This document shows, piece by piece, positions 2,023-38,932 of a stretch of 64,000 nt of DNA (its first letter is position 1; every line of letters starts with the position of its first letter). Both the position numbers and the translations under genes were made by a program. Under the pieces are notes generated by a model, which ran no database searches, had not been told where the DNA came from, and was given only the letters and a program-made list of their open reading frames with translations. The DNA is from an uncultured Clostridia bacterium (GTDB lineage Bacteria > Bacillota > Clostridia > Christensenellales > UBA1242): contig CALWTS010000005.1 in the NCBI GenBank assembly GCA_944384535.1, positions 9,870 through 73,869 on the forward strand. Reading direction: 5' to 3'.

Positions 2023-4619
2023 AAAACGAAATTTCTCCTGCGATGAAACAATATTTACTTATTAAAGAGAAATATAAAGATTGTATTTTAATGTATAGAA
2101 TGGGTGACTTTTATGAGATGTTTTTTGAAGATGCTGTTACTGCTTCGAAAGAATTGGATTTAATTTTAACAGGTAAGTTTTGTGGGTTAGAAGAAAAAGC
2201 TCCAATGTGCGGTGTTCCCCATCATGCTGTTCAAAATTATATTGCTAAGTTGATATCAGCTGGATATAAAGTTGCAATTTGCGAACAATTAAATCAGCCC
2301 GGCAAGGGAATTAAAATGTTAGATAGAGATGTTGTAAGAGTAATTACGCCAGGAACTTTGATTGATGATGAGATGCTTGAAGGACAAAGAAATAATTATC
2401 TACTATGTTTATACAAAGATAATGAAAAAATAGGTATAAGTTATGTAGATATTTCGACTGGAGAACTAGAGGTAATTGAAATCAACGAAAATTACACTCA
2501 GGAGGTTAGTGATATTATTGCAAGAATTATGCCTTCAGAGGTTATAGGAAACGAAGAAGCAGAATTATTTTTTAATAATTTACCAATCATAAAATTAGGT
2601 AATGCAAATAAATTAAAAAGTTATTATGAATGGGCTTTTACCAAAACCAGGGCTATAGATAATTTGCAAAAACAATTTGGCAGTAATTTTGAAACTGTTT
2701 ATGATATAAAAGGTAAACCTTCCATTATTTGTAGTTTAGGTGGGCTTTTAGAATATCTTTTAGAAACTCAAAAAAGATCTTTATCCAATATAAACAAGAT
2801 AAAATTAGTACGTAATAATAATTATATGACAATTGACCTAAATACTAGACGTAATTTAGAAATCGTAGATACAAATAGAGATAGAAAAAAATATGGGTCA
2901 ATATTGTGGGTACTGGATAAAACTAAAACAAGTATGGGTGCTAGATTTTTAAGAAAAATGATAGATGAGCCTTTACAAAATTCTAAAGACATAAATTTAA
3001 GATTAGATGCGGTTGAAGAATTTGTTAAAAAAATCATTTTAAGAGATAGGTTAGGTGAAATCTTAAATAATATTTTTGACATAGAACGTCTTTCTGGAAA
3101 AATTGCTTATGGAAATGTAACACCAAAAGATTTAATATCTTTAAAACTTTCTTTAAATCATATACCTGAAATAAAAAATGAATTAACGAATGTGAATTCA
3201 ATATTATTAAAAGAATGTAATGAAGATTTATTAGATGTTTCAGATATAACTTCTTTAATAGACAATGCAATAGATGAAGATGCACCAACTTTATTAAAAG
3301 ATGGTGGGTTTATTAAACGGGGTTTTAATAATGAATTGGATGAATATAGAGATGCTAGAAGGTTGGGACAAAAATGGATAGATGAATTACAGCAAAAAGA
3401 GATAGAGGAGACAGGAATAAAAAACTTAAAAATTGGATATAACAAAGTTTTTGGGTATTTTATCGAGGTTAATAAAAGTCAAATTGAAAGAGTTCCAATA
3501 AGGTATCAGAGAAAACAAACTGTAGCTAATAATGAAAGGTATATAACAGAGGATTTAAAAGTAATAGAAGATAAAGTATTAGGTGCTGAAGAAAAAGCAT
3601 TACAATTAGAAAATGAAATATTTTCTCAAATTAAAAATGTTTTAGTTAAGTATGTTCAATCTTTTCAAACAATTGCAAACGCTTTGGCAAGAATAGATGC
3701 TTTACTATCTTTGTCAGTGGTTGCGGTAAAAAATAATTATGTAAAACCAGTTATAAATAATAATATCAAACAGTTAAAAATAGTTGATGGTAGACATCCA
3801 GTAGTGGAACAATTTATGTCTAGTGGAGAATTTGTTACAAATGATACATTGTTAGATGAAAAAGATAATAAAATTATGATAATAACTGGTCCTAATATGG
3901 CTGGAAAAAGTACTTACATGAGACAAGTTGCAATTATAACTTTAATGTCTCATATAGGAAGCTTTGTACCAGCGAAAGAAGCATATATTCCAATTACAGA
4001 TAGAATATTTACAAGGGTAGGTGCCAGTGATGATTTAGCTTTTGGACAGAGTACCTTCATGGTTGAGATGAGTGAAGTTGCACAAATTTTAGCAAATGCA
4101 ACAGATAAGAGTTTAATTGTGCTTGATGAGATTGGAAGAGGAACGTCAACTTTTGACGGATTAAGTATTGCATGGGCAGTGGTAGAATATTTAGCCAATA
4201 ATTTTAAAGCTAAAACTTTGTTTGCTACACATTATCACGAATTGACTGAGTTAGAAGGAGTTTTAAATGGTGTTAAGAATTATAAAATTTCTGTAAAAGA
4301 AATAGATGATAATGTTGTGTTTTTAAGAAAAATAGTTAGGGGTGGTGCAAATAAGAGTTTTGGAATTGAAGTTGCAAGATTGGCAGGTGTTCCAAACGAT
4401 GTTTTAAATAGAGCTAAAGAGATTTCAAAAAATTTAGAAAAAGTAAATCAAAAATTGGATTTAGATATTTTTAAAGAAAATAAACCAAGAGCAGAAGAAA
4501 ATACTAAATTAGCTATGTCAATCTTATCTAGTTTAAAAGATATAGATATGAATAGAATTTCACCTATGCATGCTTTTGATTTATTAAATGATTTTGTTAG
4601 TAAAGCAAAGGAGGAATAA
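2019..4619 (+). CDS. mutS: DNA mismatch repair protein MutS
   Basis: 866 aa. N-terminal PAMKQY...GDFYEMFFEDA mismatch-binding domain, Walker A GPNMAGKST, and DEIGRGTST. The start overlaps the miaB stop (ATGA). Confidence 0.95.
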   Translation: MKNEISPAMKQYLLIKEKYKDCILMYRMGDFYEMFFEDAVTASKELDLILTGKFCGLEEKAPMCGVPHHAVQNYIAKLISAGYKVAICEQLNQPGKGIKMLDRDVVRVITPGTLIDDEMLEGQRNNYLLCLYKDNEKIGISYVDISTGELEVIEINENYTQEVSDIIARIMPSEVIGNEEAELFFNNLPIIKLGNANKLKSYYEWAFTKTRAIDNLQKQFGSNFETVYDIKGKPSIICSLGGLLEYLLETQKRSLSNINKIKLVRNNNYMTIDLNTRRNLEIVDTNRDRKKYGSILWVLDKTKTSMGARFLRKMIDEPLQNSKDINLRLDAVEEFVKKIILRDRLGEILNNIFDIERLSGKIAYGNVTPKDLISLKLSLNHIPEIKNELTNVNSILLKECNEDLLDVSDITSLIDNAIDEDAPTLLKDGGFIKRGFNNELDEYRDARRLGQKWIDELQQKEIEETGIKNLKIGYNKVFGYFIEVNKSQIERVPIRYQRKQTVANNERYITEDLKVIEDKVLGAEEKALQLENEIFSQIKNVLVKYVQSFQTIANALARIDALLSLSVVAVKNNYVKPVINNNIKQLKIVDGRHPVVEQFMSSGEFVTNDTLLDEKDNKIMIITGPNMAGKSTYMRQVAIITLMSHIGSFVPAKEAYIPITDRIFTRVGASDDLAFGQSTFMVEMSEVAQILANATDKSLIVLDEIGRGTSTFDGLSIAWAVVEYLANNFKAKTLFATHYHELTELEGVLNGVKNYKISVKEIDDNVVFLRKIVRGGANKSFGIEVARLAGVPNDVLNRAKEISKNLEKVNQKLDLDIFKENKPRAEENTKLAMSILSSLKDIDMNRISPMHAFDLLNDFVSKAKEE

Positions 4620-4620
4620 A

Positions 4621-6555
4621 ATGAAAATTAATGTTCTTGATGCCAAAGTGTTCAATAGAATATCAGCAGGAGAGGTAGTTGAAAGACCAGCATCAATTGT
4701 AAAAGAACTTGTTGAAAACAGTTTAGATGCTGGAGCAAAAAATATTAGAATAGAGATTGAAGAAGGTGGAATTAAGAATATAACTGTTTCAGATGATGGA
4801 TGCGGTATAGAAAAAGATGATTTAACTATCGCATTTTTACCTCACGCTACAAGTAAAATAAAAGATGTTGAAGATTTAGATAATATAAAAAGTTTAGGTT
4901 TTAGGGGAGAAGCTCTTGCAAGTATAGCATCAGTTTGTCAAGTGAAATTATCATCAAAGACAAGTGATTCACAATTAGGGTATTCCATTAAAGTGAATGG
5001 TGGAATTTTTGATCAGGTCGTTGAAGTTGCCAAAAGTAACGGAACAACAATTTCATGTTCAAATATATTTTTTAATACACCTGTTAGGGCAAAATTTTTA
5101 AGAAAACCAAAAACTGAAGAATCGGAAATTACACATTTGGTTGAAAAATTTATGTTGTCAAATGCTAATGTTAGTTTTCAATATTATATTGATGGTAAAC
5201 AAGTATATAATACAACTTCATGTAGTATGCGTGACATAATATATACTATATATGGGAAGGAAGTTTATGATAATTTAATAGAAGTTAATTATGATGAAAA
5301 TGGATTTAATGTTTTTGGTTATATAACGAAACCTTCTATTTCAAAAAGTAATAGGACATATCAAACGCTTTTTGTCAATGGAAGGAATGTTGAAAATTTT
5401 TTAATATCAAATGCTGTGCAAGGTGTTTATGAATCATTTTTAATGAAAGGAAAATTTCCTGTGTATGTTTTATCTATAACACTACCATATGATTGCGTAG
5501 ATGTGAATGTTCATCCTTCAAAGAAAGAAGTAAAGTTTGATAATCCAAACAAAATATTTAGTATTATAAGAAGGTCTATAGAAAAAGCTTTGTTGTCAGT
5601 TGACCAAATTCAAAATTTTAATGTATATGATACTACTAAAGAGATTTTGGAAAATGAGGTAAATAATTCTTTTCAAAGAGATTCAAAAATTGAAACTAAC
5701 AACAATAGAAGTAATAGTCAAAAATTTTTAGGAGGAAAAAGTTTTAATCTAGATTTTTTTGATAAAAATGAACAAATAATTAACCCTAAAGAATTTGAGA
5801 TTGAAATTAATAAAGATTCTCAGAAAGATAAGAATTTTGACAAAGATGTTGATCTTTTAAAAAACATTTCAATAAAAGATAAATATGACTTAAAACAAGA
5901 TGAAACTAAATTTTTTTTCGACCAGTCTAATGAAAAATTTATAAATGAAATTAAAAATTCAAATAAATCTTTTCTAGAAGCATCAATAAAAGATGAAATG
6001 AAAATTTTTGGTACACTCTTCAATACTTATATTATTATTGAATTTTCAGATGCTGTATATTTTATTGACCAGCATGCCGCTCATGAACGATTATTGTATG
6101 ATAAGTTAAGAGGAGTTGTTGATAATAAAAATATTGTTAAACAAGATTTTTTAACTCCATATTCTTTTAAAGTGGGTGCAAAAGAATCTCAAATAATAGA
6201 TGATTTACTTGAAAATCTTAGAGAAATTGGATTCGAAATTGAAAAAGATGGTTATGAATATGTTGTAAAAAGTGTTCCTTACATTTTATCATATATAGAA
6301 CTTGATAAGTTTGTTGATGAGGTTTTAAAAGAGGGAAATAATTGGGATAAGAAAAATAGTGATTTTATTCATGATAAATTGTGTCAAACTGCTTGTAAAC
6401 ATGCCATTAAAGCGGGGGATATTATTTCAAAAGAAGAATGTGCTTTCCTTATAGATAATGTTAGGAAAGGCGTGATGTTATGTCCTCATGGACGTCCAAT
6501 TGTTCTTGTAATCACTAAACATGAATTTGAAAAAATGTTTAAAAGGATTGTATAA
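4621..6555 (+). CDS. mutL: DNA mismatch repair endonuclease MutL
   Basis: ATG 4621 follows GGAGGA (4611-4616); the track start at 4588 overlaps mutS and has no RBS. GHKL motifs ERPASIVKELVENSLDAG and DDGCGI, endonuclease motif DQHAAHERLLYD, C-terminal CPHGRP. Confidence 0.95.
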   Translation: MKINVLDAKVFNRISAGEVVERPASIVKELVENSLDAGAKNIRIEIEEGGIKNITVSDDGCGIEKDDLTIAFLPHATSKIKDVEDLDNIKSLGFRGEALASIASVCQVKLSSKTSDSQLGYSIKVNGGIFDQVVEVAKSNGTTISCSNIFFNTPVRAKFLRKPKTEESEITHLVEKFMLSNANVSFQYYIDGKQVYNTTSCSMRDIIYTIYGKEVYDNLIEVNYDENGFNVFGYITKPSISKSNRTYQTLFVNGRNVENFLISNAVQGVYESFLMKGKFPVYVLSITLPYDCVDVNVHPSKKEVKFDNPNKIFSIIRRSIEKALLSVDQIQNFNVYDTTKEILENEVNNSFQRDSKIETNNNRSNSQKFLGGKSFNLDFFDKNEQIINPKEFEIEINKDSQKDKNFDKDVDLLKNISIKDKYDLKQDETKFFFDQSNEKFINEIKNSNKSFLEASIKDEMKIFGTLFNTYIIIEFSDAVYFIDQHAAHERLLYDKLRGVVDNKNIVKQDFLTPYSFKVGAKESQIIDDLLENLREIGFEIEKDGYEYVVKSVPYILSYIELDKFVDEVLKEGNNWDKKNSDFIHDKLCQTACKHAIKAGDIISKEECAFLIDNVRKGVMLCPHGRPIVLVITKHEFEKMFKRIV

Positions 6556-31576: not shown

Positions 31577-31846
31577 ATGGGTGAATATATTGAAGAAAAT
31601 AATTTTATATTTGATACACAACTTTTAATTGAAGGTCAAAATCTTTCAGAAGATTCTATAATACGCTATATTACTGAAAATATTGAAGGAGACTGTCTTT
31701 TGGTTGTTGGAGATGAGGAACTTATAAAACTACATTTTCATACAAATACACCATGGAAAGTTTTAGAATATTGTGTTTCATTAGGTGAGGTTTATGATGT
31801 TGTTATAGAAAACATGCCAAGACAAGCTAGAGGATTAAAAGGTTAG
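31577..31846 (+). CDS. Stand-alone 89-aa protein resembling the central region of FakA/YloV (DAK2-domain fatty acid kinase); may be a gene remnant
   Basis: GDCLLVVGDEELIKLHFHTNTPWKVLEYCVSLGEVYDVVIENMPRQ parallels the FakA segment GDSLLVVGDEDLVKVHVHTNxPGKVLE...G.L..IKIENMREQ as I recall it. GGAG lies upstream, 9 nt after the ftsY stop. Confidence 0.45.
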   Translation: MGEYIEENNFIFDTQLLIEGQNLSEDSIIRYITENIEGDCLLVVGDEELIKLHFHTNTPWKVLEYCVSLGEVYDVVIENMPRQARGLKG

Positions 31847-31907: not shown

Positions 31908-32549
31908 ATGACTGAAGAGGAAATAATGAAAAAAGCTATTGAGAGTGAAAGAACATATTTTTCTTGTTTAGATGAAGTTATATTTTATTTAAAATCGGCA
32001 AAAGAAAATGGATTAAACATTTACGTAGAATGGAATGGAAGAATACTTTATTCATTGCTAGATGATGAAGACTCTTGTTATAAAAAATTCACTGGTTTAA
32101 GTAAAAAAGATTATCAAGAAAGAGTGAAAGAGTGGAAAAAAAAGTATGAAAATGTTAAATATAAGGCTAGATTAAATAAAAAAAATGAATTCATTGAAAG
32201 AGGAAAAAAAGTAATTTATCCTCAACTTCATAAAAGTTGGGAAGATTATATAGAAAAAAATCTTAATGGGGAATTTGATGGAGACGAAATAGAAAGTGCT
32301 TTAGAAACCATGGAATTCCTAGACAATGGCGGTATAGCAGAGCAAGGAATGAAAATGTTAGAAAAATTTTATCAAGCTAATGGCTCATTTGCTAAATCAA
32401 TAAACTTAGTTATATATTATTCTAAAAAAGGTCCAGAGTTTTATGAAAAAACTTTAAAAATGAAAGGATATGATATCCCTCAATACATAAAAGATATTAA
32501 AGAAAGAAATTATTTATATGAAAAAGAAAATGAAGGTGAAAACCAATAA
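31908..32549 (+). CDS. Hypothetical cytoplasmic protein (213 aa)
   Basis: AGGAGG upstream, with its own promoter and terminator. Charged, helical composition and no recognisable motif. Confidence 0.5.
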   Translation: MTEEEIMKKAIESERTYFSCLDEVIFYLKSAKENGLNIYVEWNGRILYSLLDDEDSCYKKFTGLSKKDYQERVKEWKKKYENVKYKARLNKKNEFIERGKKVIYPQLHKSWEDYIEKNLNGEFDGDEIESALETMEFLDNGGIAEQGMKMLEKFYQANGSFAKSINLVIYYSKKGPEFYEKTLKMKGYDIPQYIKDIKERNYLYEKENEGENQ

Positions 32550-32658: not shown

Positions 32659-33390
32659 GTGTATATGATTTATGAAAGTTTTGCAAAATTTATTGGTAGG
32701 ATTTGTTGTTTTACTTCTTTCGTAAGTACTATTCAAGGGTTTCCAAAACCGTTAACCAAGGATGAGGAATTGAAATGGATAGAAAAATTAAATAAAGGAG
32801 ATAAAGAGGCAAGAGATGTGTTAATAAATCATAATTTAAGACTTGTAGCACATATAGTGAAAAAATATAATAATTCTTTAGAAGCAGATGATTTAATTTC
32901 TGTTGGTACAATTGGTTTAATTAAGGCAGTTGATAGTTTTGATGAAAATAAAGGAGTATTATTATCTACTTACGCCTCGCGTTGTATAGAAAATGAAATA
33001 TTAATGCTTATTAGATCAAACAAAAAACATAAAGATACTATCTCATTAAACACTGTTTTGTCACCTAAAGAAGATAGTGATGAAATGGAGCTTGCCAATT
33101 TGATTCCAGCAGAAAGTGAAGATGAGGTTTTTCATCAAGTTGAAGTTGAATGTCTTATGAAAGATGTGATAAAAAACATGGAAAAATCATTAACTACAAT
33201 GGAACAGGAAATTATTAAATATAGATATGGAATTTGTGGTTATGAACTAAAAACGCAAAAAGAGGTTGCTAAATTATTTAATATATCGAGATCTTATATA
33301 TCAAGAATAGAATCAAAGGTTATTAAAATATTACAAAAAAACTTTTCAAAAAAAGAAGGTAATCAAGAAGATAAAATAGATAGTTTTTAA
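32659..33390 (+). CDS. sigK: Sporulation sigma factor sigma-K precursor (uninterrupted gene)
   Basis: Hydrophobic pro-sequence then FVSTIQGFPKPLTKDEE (compare B. subtilis YVKNNAFPQPLSSSEE). HNLRLVAHIVKKY, DLISVGTIGLIKAVDSF, YASRCIENEILM, and region 4 ISRSYISRIE. The start is GTG 32659 or ATG 32665. Confidence 0.8.
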   Translation: MYMIYESFAKFIGRICCFTSFVSTIQGFPKPLTKDEELKWIEKLNKGDKEARDVLINHNLRLVAHIVKKYNNSLEADDLISVGTIGLIKAVDSFDENKGVLLSTYASRCIENEILMLIRSNKKHKDTISLNTVLSPKEDSDEMELANLIPAESEDEVFHQVEVECLMKDVIKNMEKSLTTMEQEIIKYRYGICGYELKTQKEVAKLFNISRSYISRIESKVIKILQKNFSKKEGNQEDKIDSF

Positions 33391-33555
33391 TAGTTTTTTT
33401 ATTTTTTGAAAAATTTAATAAAAATTCTTGTTTATTAAAAAAAATAATTATATACTAATAGAAGTAGTATTAGATTACTACAATTTTTAGTGATTTGATT
33501 GTAATTAATTTTTATTTTTTAATTATAATTTTATATAAAATTTATAGAGGTCAAT

Positions 33556-34923
33556 ATGGAAAAACAAGAGTTTTACAAAGTTGTTGATAAATTGATTTTA
33601 CCTCTTTTTACAGGTTCTTTTATAGATGGAGAAGAAGAGTCTTCATCTCGCGATAATGAAGTTGCTTTTGGAAAAAGAAATACTTTATTAATAAAACCAT
33701 CTAAGGTTGATGAATATAGATTAATCTTAAAAAGAGGGCAACCATTTCAAACTTTTGAAGTGAATTTGCTTAGATCAATTATTTATGAAATTGAAAAAAT
33801 TTCTGCTCTAAAGCTGGAAGATGAAAGTTATATTGCTGTGTTGCAAGAAAATGCAATTGAAAAATCAATTTGTTCTAGTATTTGTGATTCTGAGTCTGCA
33901 AATAGTATGTTTGGTATAATTAATGAACTTGAAAAATGGGGCGCTAGGACTTATGAAGGACACAAAGTTGCAATCGGTATTATTATTAATTTAGGTGCTG
34001 ATATTAGCGAACAAAAAGAAACAATACACTTTACAGATGTAATGAATAAAGATTTTTTTGCATTATTATCTGATGGTATTGATTCGTACGTTGAATTTGA
34101 TAAAAAAGGTTTTTTATTAGGTTATGTTCAAATGAACAAAGTAAAAAAACTTTCAAGTATATCTCCTTATGAATATGAAACTGTAGCAAGATATTGCAAC
34201 GAAAAAAGAATTGGAATAGTTTTAACGCCAAATGGAGATTTTCTTATTTTCAAAAATAGAAATTTACTTTTTGCAAAACGCTCAGGTAATTGGAATATTT
34301 ATTCCCATGAAGAAGTAATACAACTTCTTTCTTATAGAGGTAATTATTCATTAAAGGATATAAGAAGGTCTATTTATTACACAGCTTTAGATGTCTCTTT
34401 TGCTTATTGCGGTGGTTGCATAATATATTTAAATAAAGAAAGTATTGAAAGTGCATTAACGCATATTAACGCACATGACATTGTTGATGAAAAGTACTTT
34501 GAAATAAAAAAAAGACAAGAATTAGAGTATGCTGGTAGGTTGTATAATCTACAAAATTTATCCACGGTCGAAACTATTTTTAATGTTCCTTATATAACTT
34601 TTTTACAAGAGCAAAAATGTATTAAAGCACAATGTTTGAGAAAAATAATTAACAATAGACCATTTCATGAATTAAGTAGAAAATTAAGACAAGAACTTGT
34701 TAGTATGGATGGTGCTACTGTAATAGATAGTGATGGAACAATTGTGGCTGTTGGAGCTATATTAAAGATAGAAGCAGGAAGTGAAGGAGGAGGAAGACTT
34801 GCTGCTGCAACCACTTTATCAAAATATGGTGTCGCTATAAAAGTTTCTCAAGATGGAATAATAAAAGCTTTTTATCCAGATAGAAAGAACGGAAAGGTAA
34901 AAACACTATTTACAGTAGGATGA
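33556..34923 (+). CDS. Uncharacterised 455-aa protein with a divergent DisA_N/diadenylate-cyclase-like C-terminal module
   Basis: The C-terminus MDGATVIDSDGTIVAVGAILKIEAGSEGGGRLAAATTLSKYGVAIKVSQDGIIKAF mirrors the DAC pattern HDGAvII..g.I.AAg..LP....GTRHRAA.GiSE..Da..ivVSEEtG.iS. DGA is kept and RHR is lost. AGAGG lies upstream. Confidence 0.5.
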   Translation: MEKQEFYKVVDKLILPLFTGSFIDGEEESSSRDNEVAFGKRNTLLIKPSKVDEYRLILKRGQPFQTFEVNLLRSIIYEIEKISALKLEDESYIAVLQENAIEKSICSSICDSESANSMFGIINELEKWGARTYEGHKVAIGIIINLGADISEQKETIHFTDVMNKDFFALLSDGIDSYVEFDKKGFLLGYVQMNKVKKLSSISPYEYETVARYCNEKRIGIVLTPNGDFLIFKNRNLLFAKRSGNWNIYSHEEVIQLLSYRGNYSLKDIRRSIYYTALDVSFAYCGGCIIYLNKESIESALTHINAHDIVDEKYFEIKKRQELEYAGRLYNLQNLSTVETIFNVPYITFLQEQKCIKAQCLRKIINNRPFHELSRKLRQELVSMDGATVIDSDGTIVAVGAILKIEAGSEGGGRLAAATTLSKYGVAIKVSQDGIIKAFYPDRKNGKVKTLFTVG

Positions 34924-34930
34924 TTTTATA

Positions 34931-34959
34931 TTGACAAAGAAAAATTTATATTGTAAAAT
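34931..34959 (+). promoter_or_regulatory. Sigma-A promoter candidate for rnpB
   Basis: TTGACA (34931-34936), 17-nt spacer, TAAAAT (34954-34959), 6-7 nt before the P1 5' strand. Confidence 0.55.
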
Positions 34960-34965
34960 AGTAAC

Positions 34966-35291
34966 AGTTATGCAGACAATCGCATTTTTAAAAATGAGGA
35001 AAGTCCGAGCATCAAGAGAACTGGGTGCTGGTTAACGGCCAGCGGAGGTGACTCTAGGGATAGTGCAACAGAAATAAACCGCCTATTACAAATAGGTAAG
35101 GATGGAAAGGTAGTGTAAGAGACTACCGCTTGATTAGAAATAATCAAGGCTCTGTAAACCCCACCTGATGCAAGGTCAAAAGGGCAAAAGTGCTTGTTCT
35201 CTCACGCCCTTTAAGAACCGCTTGAACTTATTGGCAACAATAAGTCTAGATAGATGATTGTTTAATACAGAACTCGGCTTATAGCATAACT
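34966..35291 (+). ncRNA. rnpB: RNase P RNA, Bacillus-type (type B), compact
   Basis: P4 strands GAGGAAAGTCCGAGC (34996-35010) and ACAGAACTCGGCTTA (35267-35281). P1 pairing AGTTATGC / GCATAACT. GTAAACCCC (35154-35162). Type-B-like TCTAGATAGATGATTG (35245-35260). The region is locally G+C-rich. Confidence 0.9.
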
Positions 35292-35316
35292 AACCAGCTT
35301 AATGCTGGTTTTTTTG
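35292..35316 (+). terminator. Rho-independent terminator after rnpB
   Basis: Stem AACCAGC (35292-35298) / GCTGGTT (35304-35310) followed by TTTTT. Confidence 0.75.
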
Positions 35317-35349: not shown

Positions 35350-36576
35350 ATGACAAAGAAAGAATATATATTACATTTAACAAACTTAATTGTAAATAAA
35401 GTAAAATTTTTATCTCCAAATTTAAATGAAAATAAGATTGATTATGAATTATTAAATGCTGTTGGAGTTGATGTTTCGTATCCAATTTTTATATTTAATA
35501 AACCATTAAATAAATTCTTTTATAGAGCATTTTTGTTAGCAAAAAAACAAGTAGATTTTAATTTAATTTTATTTAAAAATCCTATTGTTTCATTAAAAAA
35601 AATAAAAAGATTAAATAAAACTTTTATTTTTTTAGAAAATGAAATTGGTTCAAATTTATATTATACATTAGATGCTTTAAATATTAATTACATTGTTCAT
35701 TCAAATTATGAAAAAAATTTAAATGGCGAATATATAAAAATAAACAATTCTAAAATTGATTTTGATTATTATCCTTTTTATTATTTCAAGAAAATTATAA
35801 AAGATGGTATTATTATTGATATAAAAAGTTTTATTTTAAATGGTAAAAATTTTATTTTAAATTTAGTAAATACACGACAAAAAGTTAGTAATTTAATACT
35901 GGAAGTTAATATTCCATTACCAAGAGGATATTATTATTTTAAAAGAAATGTTGACAATATTTTTATTCAGAATTTAACAAATAAAGAGATTGCTTATTTT
36001 AATTATTTTTTTAAAAATGCAAAAATAAATTTTTCTTCAATAAGTGGTATAGAAAGTTCTACTTTTGCTTGTATCAATTTAAAAGTAGAAATATCTTTAT
36101 TACCAAAACAAGTAAAACATTATTATTTTAACTTTGGTACTAACAAATATTGTTTATTTAATTATAAAGATATGGAAGATTTTTTTAAAATATCTCAACA
36201 AAAAATGAATGAAATTTTTGATATAAAAATAAATTCTAATGATAAGCAACTAGACTGCTTGTTTAATCTTTCTTTGCCCCGAAAAATATGGGAAAAATGG
36301 CAAAATTTTGATTTTGATGATGAAAGTGAAAATGAATGGTTAAAAATTAAAAATAAGATAATTTTAAAAAGTGATAAAGGGGAACAAATTAATTCCTTGT
36401 TCAAAGGTTTAAAAGAAGTCAGTTTCTACCGAAATTTAGGGTGGAAAAGGGTTTTTATTATTCATAATAATTCTTGTTATTTATATGCGGATAATATAAA
36501 ATATTTTAATTATACTTTGTTAACAAAAGAGATATTTAAACAAAATAATGAAATTTACTTGTCTTTTGCTAATTAG
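35350..36576 (+). CDS. Hypothetical protein (408 aa), extremely N/K/I/F/Y-rich orphan
   Basis: Uninterrupted 1.2-kb ORF in very AT-rich DNA. No motif I recognise and no TM or signal sequence. It ends 15 nt before the rarA ORF. Confidence 0.5.
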   Translation: MTKKEYILHLTNLIVNKVKFLSPNLNENKIDYELLNAVGVDVSYPIFIFNKPLNKFFYRAFLLAKKQVDFNLILFKNPIVSLKKIKRLNKTFIFLENEIGSNLYYTLDALNINYIVHSNYEKNLNGEYIKINNSKIDFDYYPFYYFKKIIKDGIIIDIKSFILNGKNFILNLVNTRQKVSNLILEVNIPLPRGYYYFKRNVDNIFIQNLTNKEIAYFNYFFKNAKINFSSISGIESSTFACINLKVEISLLPKQVKHYYFNFGTNKYCLFNYKDMEDFFKISQQKMNEIFDIKINSNDKQLDCLFNLSLPRKIWEKWQNFDFDDESENEWLKIKNKIILKSDKGEQINSLFKGLKEVSFYRNLGWKRVFIIHNNSCYLYADNIKYFNYTLLTKEIFKQNNEIYLSFAN

Positions 36577-37867: not shown

Positions 37868-38932
37868 ATGTTTGGCTTTAGAAATGATGGGAAAAAAGTT
37901 AAAAATATGAATATAATTGACAAAGCAGAGCCTTTTTTTATGCCTCAAAGGATTGATGCTGTAAATTATGTAACAATAAAAATTCCTTGTGATAAAATGG
38001 ATGAATTTATTGTTAGAGAAAGAAGAAGTGGAAATAGTTATAATTACATGCATTTAATAATTGCTACTATTGTTAGAGTTTTATACACAAGGGAAAAATT
38101 AAATCGTTTTATTATGAGAGGATCTATTTATCAAAGAAACACAATAAGTGTTTCTATGGACATTAAAAAGAAACTTGAAGATGATGGTGAACAGGTTACA
38201 CTTAAATTTTATTTTACTGGCAGAGAAAATTTACAACAAATTAAACAAATAGTTGATAATGAAATTGAAAAGAATTTAAAAAATGATGAAGTACATACTA
38301 CAACCAAAGCAGCAGGAAAGTTAGTAAAACTTCCCGACTTTTTATTTAGGTGGGCGATGGCTATTATACGTTGGGCTGATAGACATGGTTTATTAACAAA
38401 ATCTTTAATTAATGCTAGTCCTTTTCATACCAGTTGTTTTCTTACAAATTTGAAATCAATAAAACTTGGTCATATTTATCACCATTTGTATAATTTCGGA
38501 ACTACATCTATGTTTATTTCTATGGGAAAAGAGAAAATCGAACCATTTGTTGAAAATAATAAAGAAATTAAACTTGGAAAATTCTTGAATTTAGGAATTT
38601 CTTTAGATGAAAGAATTGCTGATGGATTATACATGGGAAAAAGTTTGAAATTGTTAAAAGATTTAATAACTAATCCGGATAATTTAAATATTGAAATGCC
38701 AGAAGATGGAACTATTCCTAAAAAATTAATAAAGAAAAAAGCTAAAAAAGAAAAAAAATTAAAAAAGAAAGAAGCTAAAACGATTAAAAAAGAGGAAGAA
38801 AAAAAGAAGAAAAAAATAAAACCAATTAAGAACAAACAAAAATATGAAGAAAAATTAAGAAAGTCAAAAAAGAAAAAAGAAAAATTTATATCTTTTGAAG
38901 ATGGATTAGATTCAAAAAATAATGATTTGTGA
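37868..38932 (+). CDS. 2-oxoacid dehydrogenase E2 / CAT-fold acyltransferase homologue with the catalytic His replaced and a poly-lysine C-terminal tail
   Basis: LGISLDERIADGLYMGKSLKLLKDLITNP parallels the E2 catalytic motif SLSxDHRxxDGaxaaxFLxxLkxxLExP. About 70 C-terminal residues are K/E-rich (KKLIKKKAKKEKKLKKKEAK...). Confidence 0.5.
   Translation: MFGFRNDGKKVKNMNIIDKAEPFFMPQRIDAVNYVTIKIPCDKMDEFIVRERRSGNSYNYMHLIIATIVRVLYTREKLNRFIMRGSIYQRNTISVSMDIKKKLEDDGEQVTLKFYFTGRENLQQIKQIVDNEIEKNLKNDEVHTTTKAAGKLVKLPDFLFRWAMAIIRWADRHGLLTKSLINASPFHTSCFLTNLKSIKLGHIYHHLYNFGTTSMFISMGKEKIEPFVENNKEIKLGKFLNLGISLDERIADGLYMGKSLKLLKDLITNPDNLNIEMPEDGTIPKKLIKKKAKKEKKLKKKEAKTIKKEEEKKKKKIKPIKNKQKYEEKLRKSKKKKEKFISFEDGLDSKNNDL

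Follow-up and report, generated by a model that had tools for sequence, protein, structure and literature searches.

Diadenylate cyclases (DACs) control osmotic balance and cell-wall homeostasis and, to our knowledge, all those studied pair head-to-head. Their part in anti-phage signalling was shown in 2026. In CdaG (DS-2C), the cyclase of the system DS-2 / CBASS-DAC, two domains named DACNG and DACNH precede the DAC domain, and DACNH has been described as related to DACs very distantly and as catalytically dead. PanS, the active cyclase of the defence system Panoptoo / PanDA, uses the catalytic motifs DGF and GGR, whose mutation abolishes cUA synthesis (2026 preprint); four residues, D, G, G and R, are reported to be conserved in all curated DACs (2026 preprint). 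Here we analyse a gene of an uncultured Clostridia bacterium that encodes a 455-residue protein and lies within a 64,000-nucleotide stretch of contig CALWTS010000005.1 (assembly GCA_944384535.1), hereafter the window. We conclude that this protein is probably a sensor-regulated cyclic-dinucleotide synthase of the DAC superfamily, soluble and composed of three domains, as judged from its sequence and its predicted structure. Compared with the systems above, its family carries what its motifs indicate to be the PanS-type GGR variant of the active site.

The C-terminal ~190 residues are, according to profile matches among homologues and to a structural model, a genuine, very divergent DAC domain, which agrees with an earlier sequence-only reading of this DNA that had recognized a DAC-like module there. 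Relatives 75-88% identical to the window protein match the Pfam DAC profile (PF02457) with 24.1-26.8 bits (E 4e-6 to 3e-5; gathering cutoff 27), the matches covering residues ~373-433, that is, profile positions 42-107 of 119. Among 45 diverse members of the family, 11 match the same profile at E<=0.01 (best E 4.8e-7), and Rhizobium members, including the one named after this domain in UniRef, likewise match it. The fold points in the same direction. When an AlphaFold2 model of the full-length protein, built with 142 homologues (mean predicted local distance difference test score, pLDDT, 95.3; predicted template modelling score, pTM, 0.92), was compared with the PDB by Foldseek, ranks 1-41 were all diadenylate cyclases (DacA, CdaA, DisA, CdaM, DacM and CdaS), each with a probability of 1.00, E between 6e-4 and 1e-2 and a target TM-score <=0.61. 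The expected resemblance to DisA and CdaA structures is thus present in the full-length model. These alignments extend over 190-216 columns against targets of ~150 residues because of a helical insertion in the domain, modelled as helices 312-328, 332-342, 346-352 and 356-365; it is gapped at least in part in most family members and is longer in the clade of the window protein.

Conservation of the active site was scored in an alignment of 142 sequences with a mean column identity of 23%. For the register we used the CdaA of L. monocytogenes, whose sequence is identical to that of PDB 6hvl, as the reference; hhalign against a two-sequence CdaA alignment, too thin for significance, gave P=0.05 and an informative register. 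The DGA motif falls on the DGA of CdaA, G412-G413-R414 on the G-T-R of GTRHR, and S431 on the Ser of VSEETG. DGA had been read as intact, and so it is, with D385 and G386 invariant. The claim that RHR had been lost was one residue out of register: since G412-G413-R414 aligns with G-T-R, the first Arg of RHR is retained as the invariant R414, and the replacement affects the His and the second Arg only. All four of the positions universal to DACs are therefore kept (D385, G386, G412 and R414, each in 142/142 sequences). K429 is found in 140/142 homologues. D433 is nearly as constant (141/142), and its pairing with the metal-binding Glu of VSEETG hinges on a one-residue gap. To judge by these residues, the active site is not obviously crippled and the protein is not a dead enzyme; the invariance of the catalytic positions across a very divergent family is the pattern that catalysis predicts, and not mere binding.

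In the mechanism that we favour, the DAC domains of two chains would pair head-to-head and condense two nucleoside triphosphates into a cyclic dinucleotide. The product would most simply be 3'3'-cyclic di-AMP (c-di-AMP), and cUA or another mixed product is also possible, given an active site of the PanS GGR type. The N-terminal alpha/beta domain and the middle domain would serve as a sensor or regulator gating productive pairing on a cue, and the middle domain may be a dead DAC-like duplicate, as DACNH is in CdaG. No receptor or effector is co-encoded, and the product would thus probably feed the general cyclic-dinucleotide receptors of the cell.

Several findings weigh against a cyclase. The window protein has no match to PF02457 even at E<=10, so that a match to this profile is borne out for the C-terminal part of the homologues and not for the protein itself, and its close relatives remain slightly below the gathering threshold; the family is thus consistently sub-threshold for PF02457 by sequence. 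A profile of 45 family sequences retrieved no DAC chain from the PDB sequences with HMMER, and single-sequence searches of Pfam, NCBIfam, PADLOC and the PDB sequences yielded nothing usable besides a weak match to a DS-2 protein. In the active site the canonical RHR is absent, the sequence being G412-G413-R414-L415-A416 without the His and the second Arg, and the acidic pair of SEE is reduced to a single Asp, the putative equivalent of the metal-binding Glu. To these is added the helical insertion of ~70 residues inside the DAC domain.

The sequence-only reading had further proposed that a segment upstream of the DAC domain repeats its layout. The middle domain is not a decaying relic, because it has invariant or near-invariant positions of its own (Y133, E134, G135, P204, an acidic residue at 228, R242 and W246 in the 142-sequence alignment). 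In the AlphaFold2 model, the stretch from helix 112-129 to helix 251-257 runs as helix, strand, helix, two strands, helix, three or four strands and helix, which is the order of elements in the C-terminal DAC domain; canonical DACs share this order, as seen in CdaA structures. When residues 130-262 were compared with residues 263-455 by hhalign, a single collinear alignment was obtained (174-237 with 383-444; score 22.3, P=0.0045, probability only 7.7%), in which S(N/D)G.D(T/S) is paired with IDGAT and P.R(F/Y) with GGGR. In 200 block permutations of the C-terminal alignment the null score was 12.9 +/- 2.6 (z~3.7), and 2/200 reached the observed score. The repeated layout is recovered as a collinear profile match in the same register, but Pfam gives it no support (no match to the DAC profile at E<=10 in 29 members whose N-terminal and middle parts were searched) and Foldseek a single marginal match. 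A separate model of residues 1-262 (pLDDT 91.3) found nothing in the PDB at E<=1e-3 and did not recover the CdaA, DacA and CdaM entries; its only DAC-containing match was a low-resolution MsDisA structure (E=0.08, probability 0.57). An ancient DAC duplication in the middle domain, with a proposed second DAC at residues ~112-262, is plausible but only weakly supported.

This bears on the idea, also raised in the sequence-only reading, of an intramolecular pseudo-dimer in which a dead middle DAC packs in cis on the live one, which would yield either an enzyme with one asymmetric site and a different product or an auto-inhibited state relieved by a signal. The DAC-like order of elements in the middle region, the collinear hhalign match with its permutation test and the MsDisA match speak for it, as do the DACNH of CdaG as a precedent and the pTM of the full-length model, which implies a fixed inter-domain arrangement. 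Against it are the lack of any Pfam DAC match in those parts of the 29 members, the failure of the 262-residue model to recover the CdaA, DacA and CdaM structures, the low hhalign probability and the absence of a DACNH or DACNG match in Pfam. On balance we find such a pseudo-dimer somewhat unlikely as a separate explanation; it is compatible with the head-to-head cyclase model, of which it would be a regulatory detail.

The first ~130 residues had been described as matching no recognizable family, and sequence and structure searches agree: the N-terminal domain has no match in Pfam, NCBIfam, the PDB sequences or BFVD, and Foldseek returned only weak longin/GAF-type matches (E>0.08). It is, on the evidence of the model, a novel soluble alpha/beta domain. 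When the N-terminal and middle domains were used together as a profile to look for other architectures, close relatives filled the 120 matches listed.

The protein had been called an orphan, which it is not. A word-indexed search returned 701 homologues, and phmmer, run exhaustively against 1.84 billion cluster representatives (50% identity), returned 935 at E<=1e-3 and 323 at E<=1e-30, mostly of 400-470 amino acids and aligning over their full length. They range from Clostridia to Rhizobium, with a patchy spread across phyla, and are mostly annotated as 'hypothetical protein', an exception being WP_011654016.1 of Rhizobium johnstonii, a 'DAC domain-containing protein' in UniRef. No relatives were found in viral contigs or in BFVD. 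This is a large, unnamed and strongly constrained family, an unstudied variant of an established enzyme class and not a new kind of system. Two distant members carry N-terminal nucleic-acid-binding domains, Schlafen/AlbA_2 in P0143 (L091, 5198-7021) and HU in P0167 (L092, 6001-7569); these fusions, which could be artefacts of gene calling, hint at a possible action of the family on DNA or RNA, or close to them.

The genomic setting of the family was surveyed by scanning one genome per GTDB species with a 9-sequence family alignment and retaining the best 80 loci, a sample biased to close relatives and coming nearly entirely from uncultured gut or rumen Clostridia. In the clade of the window protein (50-88% identity), the order sigK-like gene, DAC-family gene, 408-residue open reading frame (ORF) and rarA is kept in ~50 species genomes, and the upstream side also includes smc and ftsY in the closer relatives. 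A sigma gene adjoins the DAC-family gene in 46/80 species-representative loci, including some in which the upstream genes have been replaced; the adjacency to sigK is real and conserved, and it is inseparable from the general synteny. Protein identity declines in parallel with that of smc, ftsY and rarA, and the G+C content of the gene (28-29%) is the same as that of its neighbours. In contrast, defence-island DACs are reported to lie ~10% off the G+C content of their hosts. On these sequence criteria, the gene in the window lineage is chromosomal and vertically inherited, and it has its own putative vegetative-type promoter.

A second Clostridia clade (40-45% identity) has another arrangement, likewise of housekeeping character, namely a dCMP deaminase, a 750-residue membrane protein, a RihC-like nucleoside hydrolase, the DAC-family gene and phosphoglycerate mutase, with a SecA or [FeFe]-hydrogenase-like gene nearby in some loci; most of these neighbours were identified by eye, and RihC alone was confirmed by a profile. 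In 14 loci (among L066-L090; e.g. L071, 213-1127) the RihC-like ribonucleoside hydrolase (E=1.3e-71) is the immediate upstream neighbour and has the same orientation; a functional link between this nucleotide-metabolism gene and the DAC-family gene may or may not exist.

Distant members (27-35% identity) are found in scattered contexts. For instance, the Rhizobium member P0137 lies beside an integrase, a resolvase and a helix-turn-helix/ImmA-type protein; P0180 beside AAA_15/21 with DUF4276; P0167 beside an integrase, an Mrr-type nuclease, DUF4365, a helicase and TerB; and P0192 beside ParE and an antitoxin, three RadC genes and a PHP-SMC/AAA_21 protein ending 16 nucleotides upstream. The other distant members inspected have ordinary genes around them. 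Outside the conserved Clostridia loci, the family spreads horizontally, often in mobile or defence islands. In locus L094, the gene of an 895-residue PHP + SMC_N/AAA_21 protein (3297-5984) ends 16 nucleotides before the DAC-family gene; the surrounding island also has ParE/antitoxin, three RadC genes and HetE-N, and the PHP-SMC_N/AAA_21 and DAC-family pair could be a two-gene system.

Such islands speak for a single-gene anti-phage or conflict system, in which the N-terminal module would sense infection and a burst of cyclic dinucleotide would arrest or kill the cell. The patchy spread across phyla and the GGR motif common to PanS would also fit, and the only DAC-type match in NCBIfam is to the third, DAC protein of the anti-phage system DS-2 (NF053872; 16.9 bits versus a cutoff of 630, E 0.0015, residues 372-411). 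This match is limited to the helix and DGA region, and of the 11 proteins tested with NF053872, 3 (the window protein and two of ten distant members) match it, at profile positions 399-451 only. However, in the window lineage the gene is core-syntenic, diverges at a housekeeping rate and has the G+C content of its host; the window protein has no match in PADLOC, no recurrent effector-like partner occurs in the neighbourhoods inspected, and the viral contigs and BFVD gave no relatives. We therefore judge a single-gene defence role unlikely, and less likely for the lineage of the window than for the family overall.

A pseudoenzyme or receptor, whose DAC-like domain would bind ATP, c-di-AMP or another nucleotide without synthesis and act as a nucleotide sensor or regulator, appears distinctly unlikely to us. 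It would accord with the altered RHR and SEETG signatures, the sub-threshold Pfam scores and the lack of a co-encoded effector or partner, but the residues that have been kept are the catalytic ones, invariant in a very divergent family as binding alone would not demand, and GGR is catalytically essential in the active PanS. A bolder variant, which we hold to be improbable, joins several of these elements: a dead middle DAC in cis with a live GGR DAC would create an asymmetric site making a non-canonical nucleotide, mixed cyclic or linear, and the gene, derived from or ancestral to the defence-island versions, would be a core, vertically inherited source of a second messenger throughout a large group of uncultured gut Clostridia. 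A sporulation-linked cyclase, a functional analogue of CdaS tied to its sigK-like neighbour, is suggested by the position directly downstream of that gene in the 46 loci and is highly improbable in view of a conserved upstream motif of sigmaA type (TTGnnn-17-TATACT) and not of sigmaK, E, F or G type, of the clade at 40-45% identity without a sigma neighbour, of an architecture unlike that of CdaS and of the occurrence of the family in non-sporulating Rhizobium.

The features of the locus are listed in Table 1. The ORF of the DAC-family gene and the AT-rich spacer of 165 nucleotides on its 5' side had been delimited correctly, the former to the nucleotide, and the local gene list contains no cdaR, glmM or disA-type neighbour, as previously stated. 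The window encodes no canonical DAC, and no c-di-AMP riboswitch was found within its 64 kb. The putative promoter was missed by the consensus promoter scan because its -35 hexamer agrees at 3/6 positions only; TTGnnn-N17-TATACT/TATAAT is also found upstream of orthologues in most of the 46 syntenic loci inspected, and these have ribosome-binding sites of the GGAG/GAGG type at the equivalent place. A sporulation-type promoter was considered for the upstream region and rejected, the conserved motif being of sigmaA type and no sporulation-type motif being evident.

The sigma gene directly upstream is SigK-like, as had been thought: its best NCBIfam match is SigK (NF004471, E=7.5e-75, 251.2 bits versus a cutoff of 252), SigE coming second. 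The gene falls just below both SigK models (251.2 versus 252; 246 versus 298.65), and its assignment to SigK rather than SigE is thus not fully secure. It appears intact, without a skin-type interruption.

On the 3' side, the DAC-family gene is bounded by the rnpB unit (34931..35310). The rnpB promoter begins 8 nucleotides past the stop codon, and in the 40 nucleotides between this codon and rnpB no terminator is predicted, so that read-through into rnpB is possible. Right after rnpB, the 408-residue ORF has a G+C content of 17-21% (27-32% in its surroundings) and no NCBIfam match; it is syntenic yet fast-diverging, at 43-67% identity where rarA holds 74-86%, and its homologue in the related locus L001 has no Pfam domain.

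Other ORFs near the gene also merit description. The only match of an 89-residue ORF is to the central part of the DAK2-fusion protein YloV/FakA (profile 219-298 of 530, E=1.4e-15); the ORF is kept at 74-81% identity in relatives and thus looks like a free-standing mini-domain, not a decaying fragment. Between ftsY and the sigK-like gene, an ORF of 213 residues without a family match is present in only 3/80 related loci (36-38% identity) and is thus a variable insertion, the rest of the block being conserved. A 354-residue ORF has no NCBIfam match here, its homologue has a 2-oxoacid dehydrogenase acyltransferase domain (PF00198), and its C-terminus is a long Lys/Glu-rich tail (KKKAKKEKKLKKKEAK...).

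Table 1. Features of the DAC-family locus; positions are those of the window.
Feature	Position	Strand	Basis or remark
89-residue ORF	31577-31846	+	
213-residue ORF	31908-32549	+	
SigK-like gene	32659-33390	+	NCBIfam
Putative sigmaA-type promoter: TTGTTT (33428-33433), 17-nucleotide spacer, TATACT (33451-33456)	33428..33456	+	read from sequence
Ribosome-binding site AGAGG, 5 nucleotides ahead of ATG	33546..33550	+	sequence
DAC-family gene, complete ORF, 455 residues	33556..34923	+	translation equals the peptide segments quoted in the sequence-only reading; full-length homologues
N-terminal domain, residues 1-129: helix, four strands, three long helices	33556..33942	+	secondary structure of the model
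Middle domain, residues 130-262; possibly an ancient, catalytically dead DAC-like duplicate	33943..34341	+	conservation; element order; hhalign
C-terminal DAC (DisA_N-like) domain, residues 263-455	34342..34920	+	Pfam DAC matches in homologues; Foldseek; weak NF053872
Helical insertion in the DAC domain, ~residues 305-372	34468..34671	+	model; alignment gaps
DGA motif (D385, G386, A387)	34708..34716	+	D385 142/142, G386 142/142, A387 132/142
GGR motif (G412, G413, R414), counterpart of G-T-R in GTRHR	34789..34797	+	G412 142/142, G413 122/142, R414 142/142
S431-Q432-D433, counterpart of SEE(T) in VSEETG	34846..34854	+	S431 142/142, D433 141/142
rnpB promoter TTGACA-17-TAAAAT, near-consensus	34931..34959	+	promoter scan
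rnpB (RNase P RNA class A), separate neighbouring unit	34964..35297	+	271 bits
rnpB terminator	35292..35310	+	prediction
408-residue ORF	35350-36576	+	
354-residue ORF	37868-38932	+	

Because the family lies just below the Pfam DAC threshold, surveys that count DAC domains would probably miss it. By analogy with the described cyclases, it combines an active site of the PanS-like GGR type with two uncharacterised domains of proposed regulatory function, one of which may be a fossil DAC. Characterising one member would reveal which nucleotide the GGR variant of the active site makes, would test whether the pairing of a dead with a live DAC is a general regulatory design, and would show how one cyclase family shifts between housekeeping and defence-island settings.

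The window protein is set apart from CdaA, DisA, CdaS, PanS and CdaG by the defining features of each. CdaS is likewise a soluble, conditional second DAC of Firmicutes, and its structure 2fb5 is among the fold matches; however, its two-helix N-terminal extension as the only additional part, its canonical RHR and its sporulation-specific expression are not seen in the window protein. DisA shares the DAC fold, and the rare AlbA_2 and HU fusions in the family recall its link to DNA, whereas its order of domains is different: DisA has an N-terminal DAC, a helical spine and a helix-hairpin-helix domain, and the window protein has a C-terminal DAC and no helix-hairpin-helix match. CdaA/DacA are the closest solved structures by Foldseek, with DGA, the G.R of GTRHR and the Ser of VSEETG aligned. 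In contrast to CdaA, the window protein lacks N-terminal transmembrane helices and its gene is not part of a cdaA-cdaR-glmM operon, having the sigK-like gene and rnpB as neighbours; RHR has shrunk to one R, SEE to S.D, and the helical insertion is added.

With PanS, a minimal DAC, the protein shares the DAC fold, the GGR replacing RHR and the retention of D, G, G and R. PanS has ~150 residues, no regulatory domains and DGF, whereas the window protein has 455 residues, three domains and DGA. Moreover, PanS is encoded in an operon with a 2TM-beta (S2TMbeta) effector, whereas the window gene is followed by rnpB and the unrelated 408-residue ORF, and no S2TMbeta-type neighbour occurs in the inspected loci of its relatives. 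CdaG is likewise soluble and has a divergent DAC behind two uncharacterised N-terminal domains; its DACNH has a possible counterpart in the middle domain of the window protein, which may also be a dead relative of DACs. No Pfam match to DACNG or DACNH was obtained for the window protein (E<=10), for 45 members (E<=0.01) or for 29 members searched with their N-terminal and middle parts (E<=10), the CdaG sequence not being among the controls. Compared with CdaG, the window protein has ~120 residues fewer and no C-terminal helical bundle; neither the 12 neighbourhoods inspected nor the 80 genome loci contain a CBASS operon or a CD-NTase, phospholipase or 2TM-beta neighbour, and in the window lineage the gene is core-syntenic, outside a defence island. 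By analogy, then, the nearest described protein in design is CdaG/DS-2C, and the nearest in active-site chemistry is PanS.

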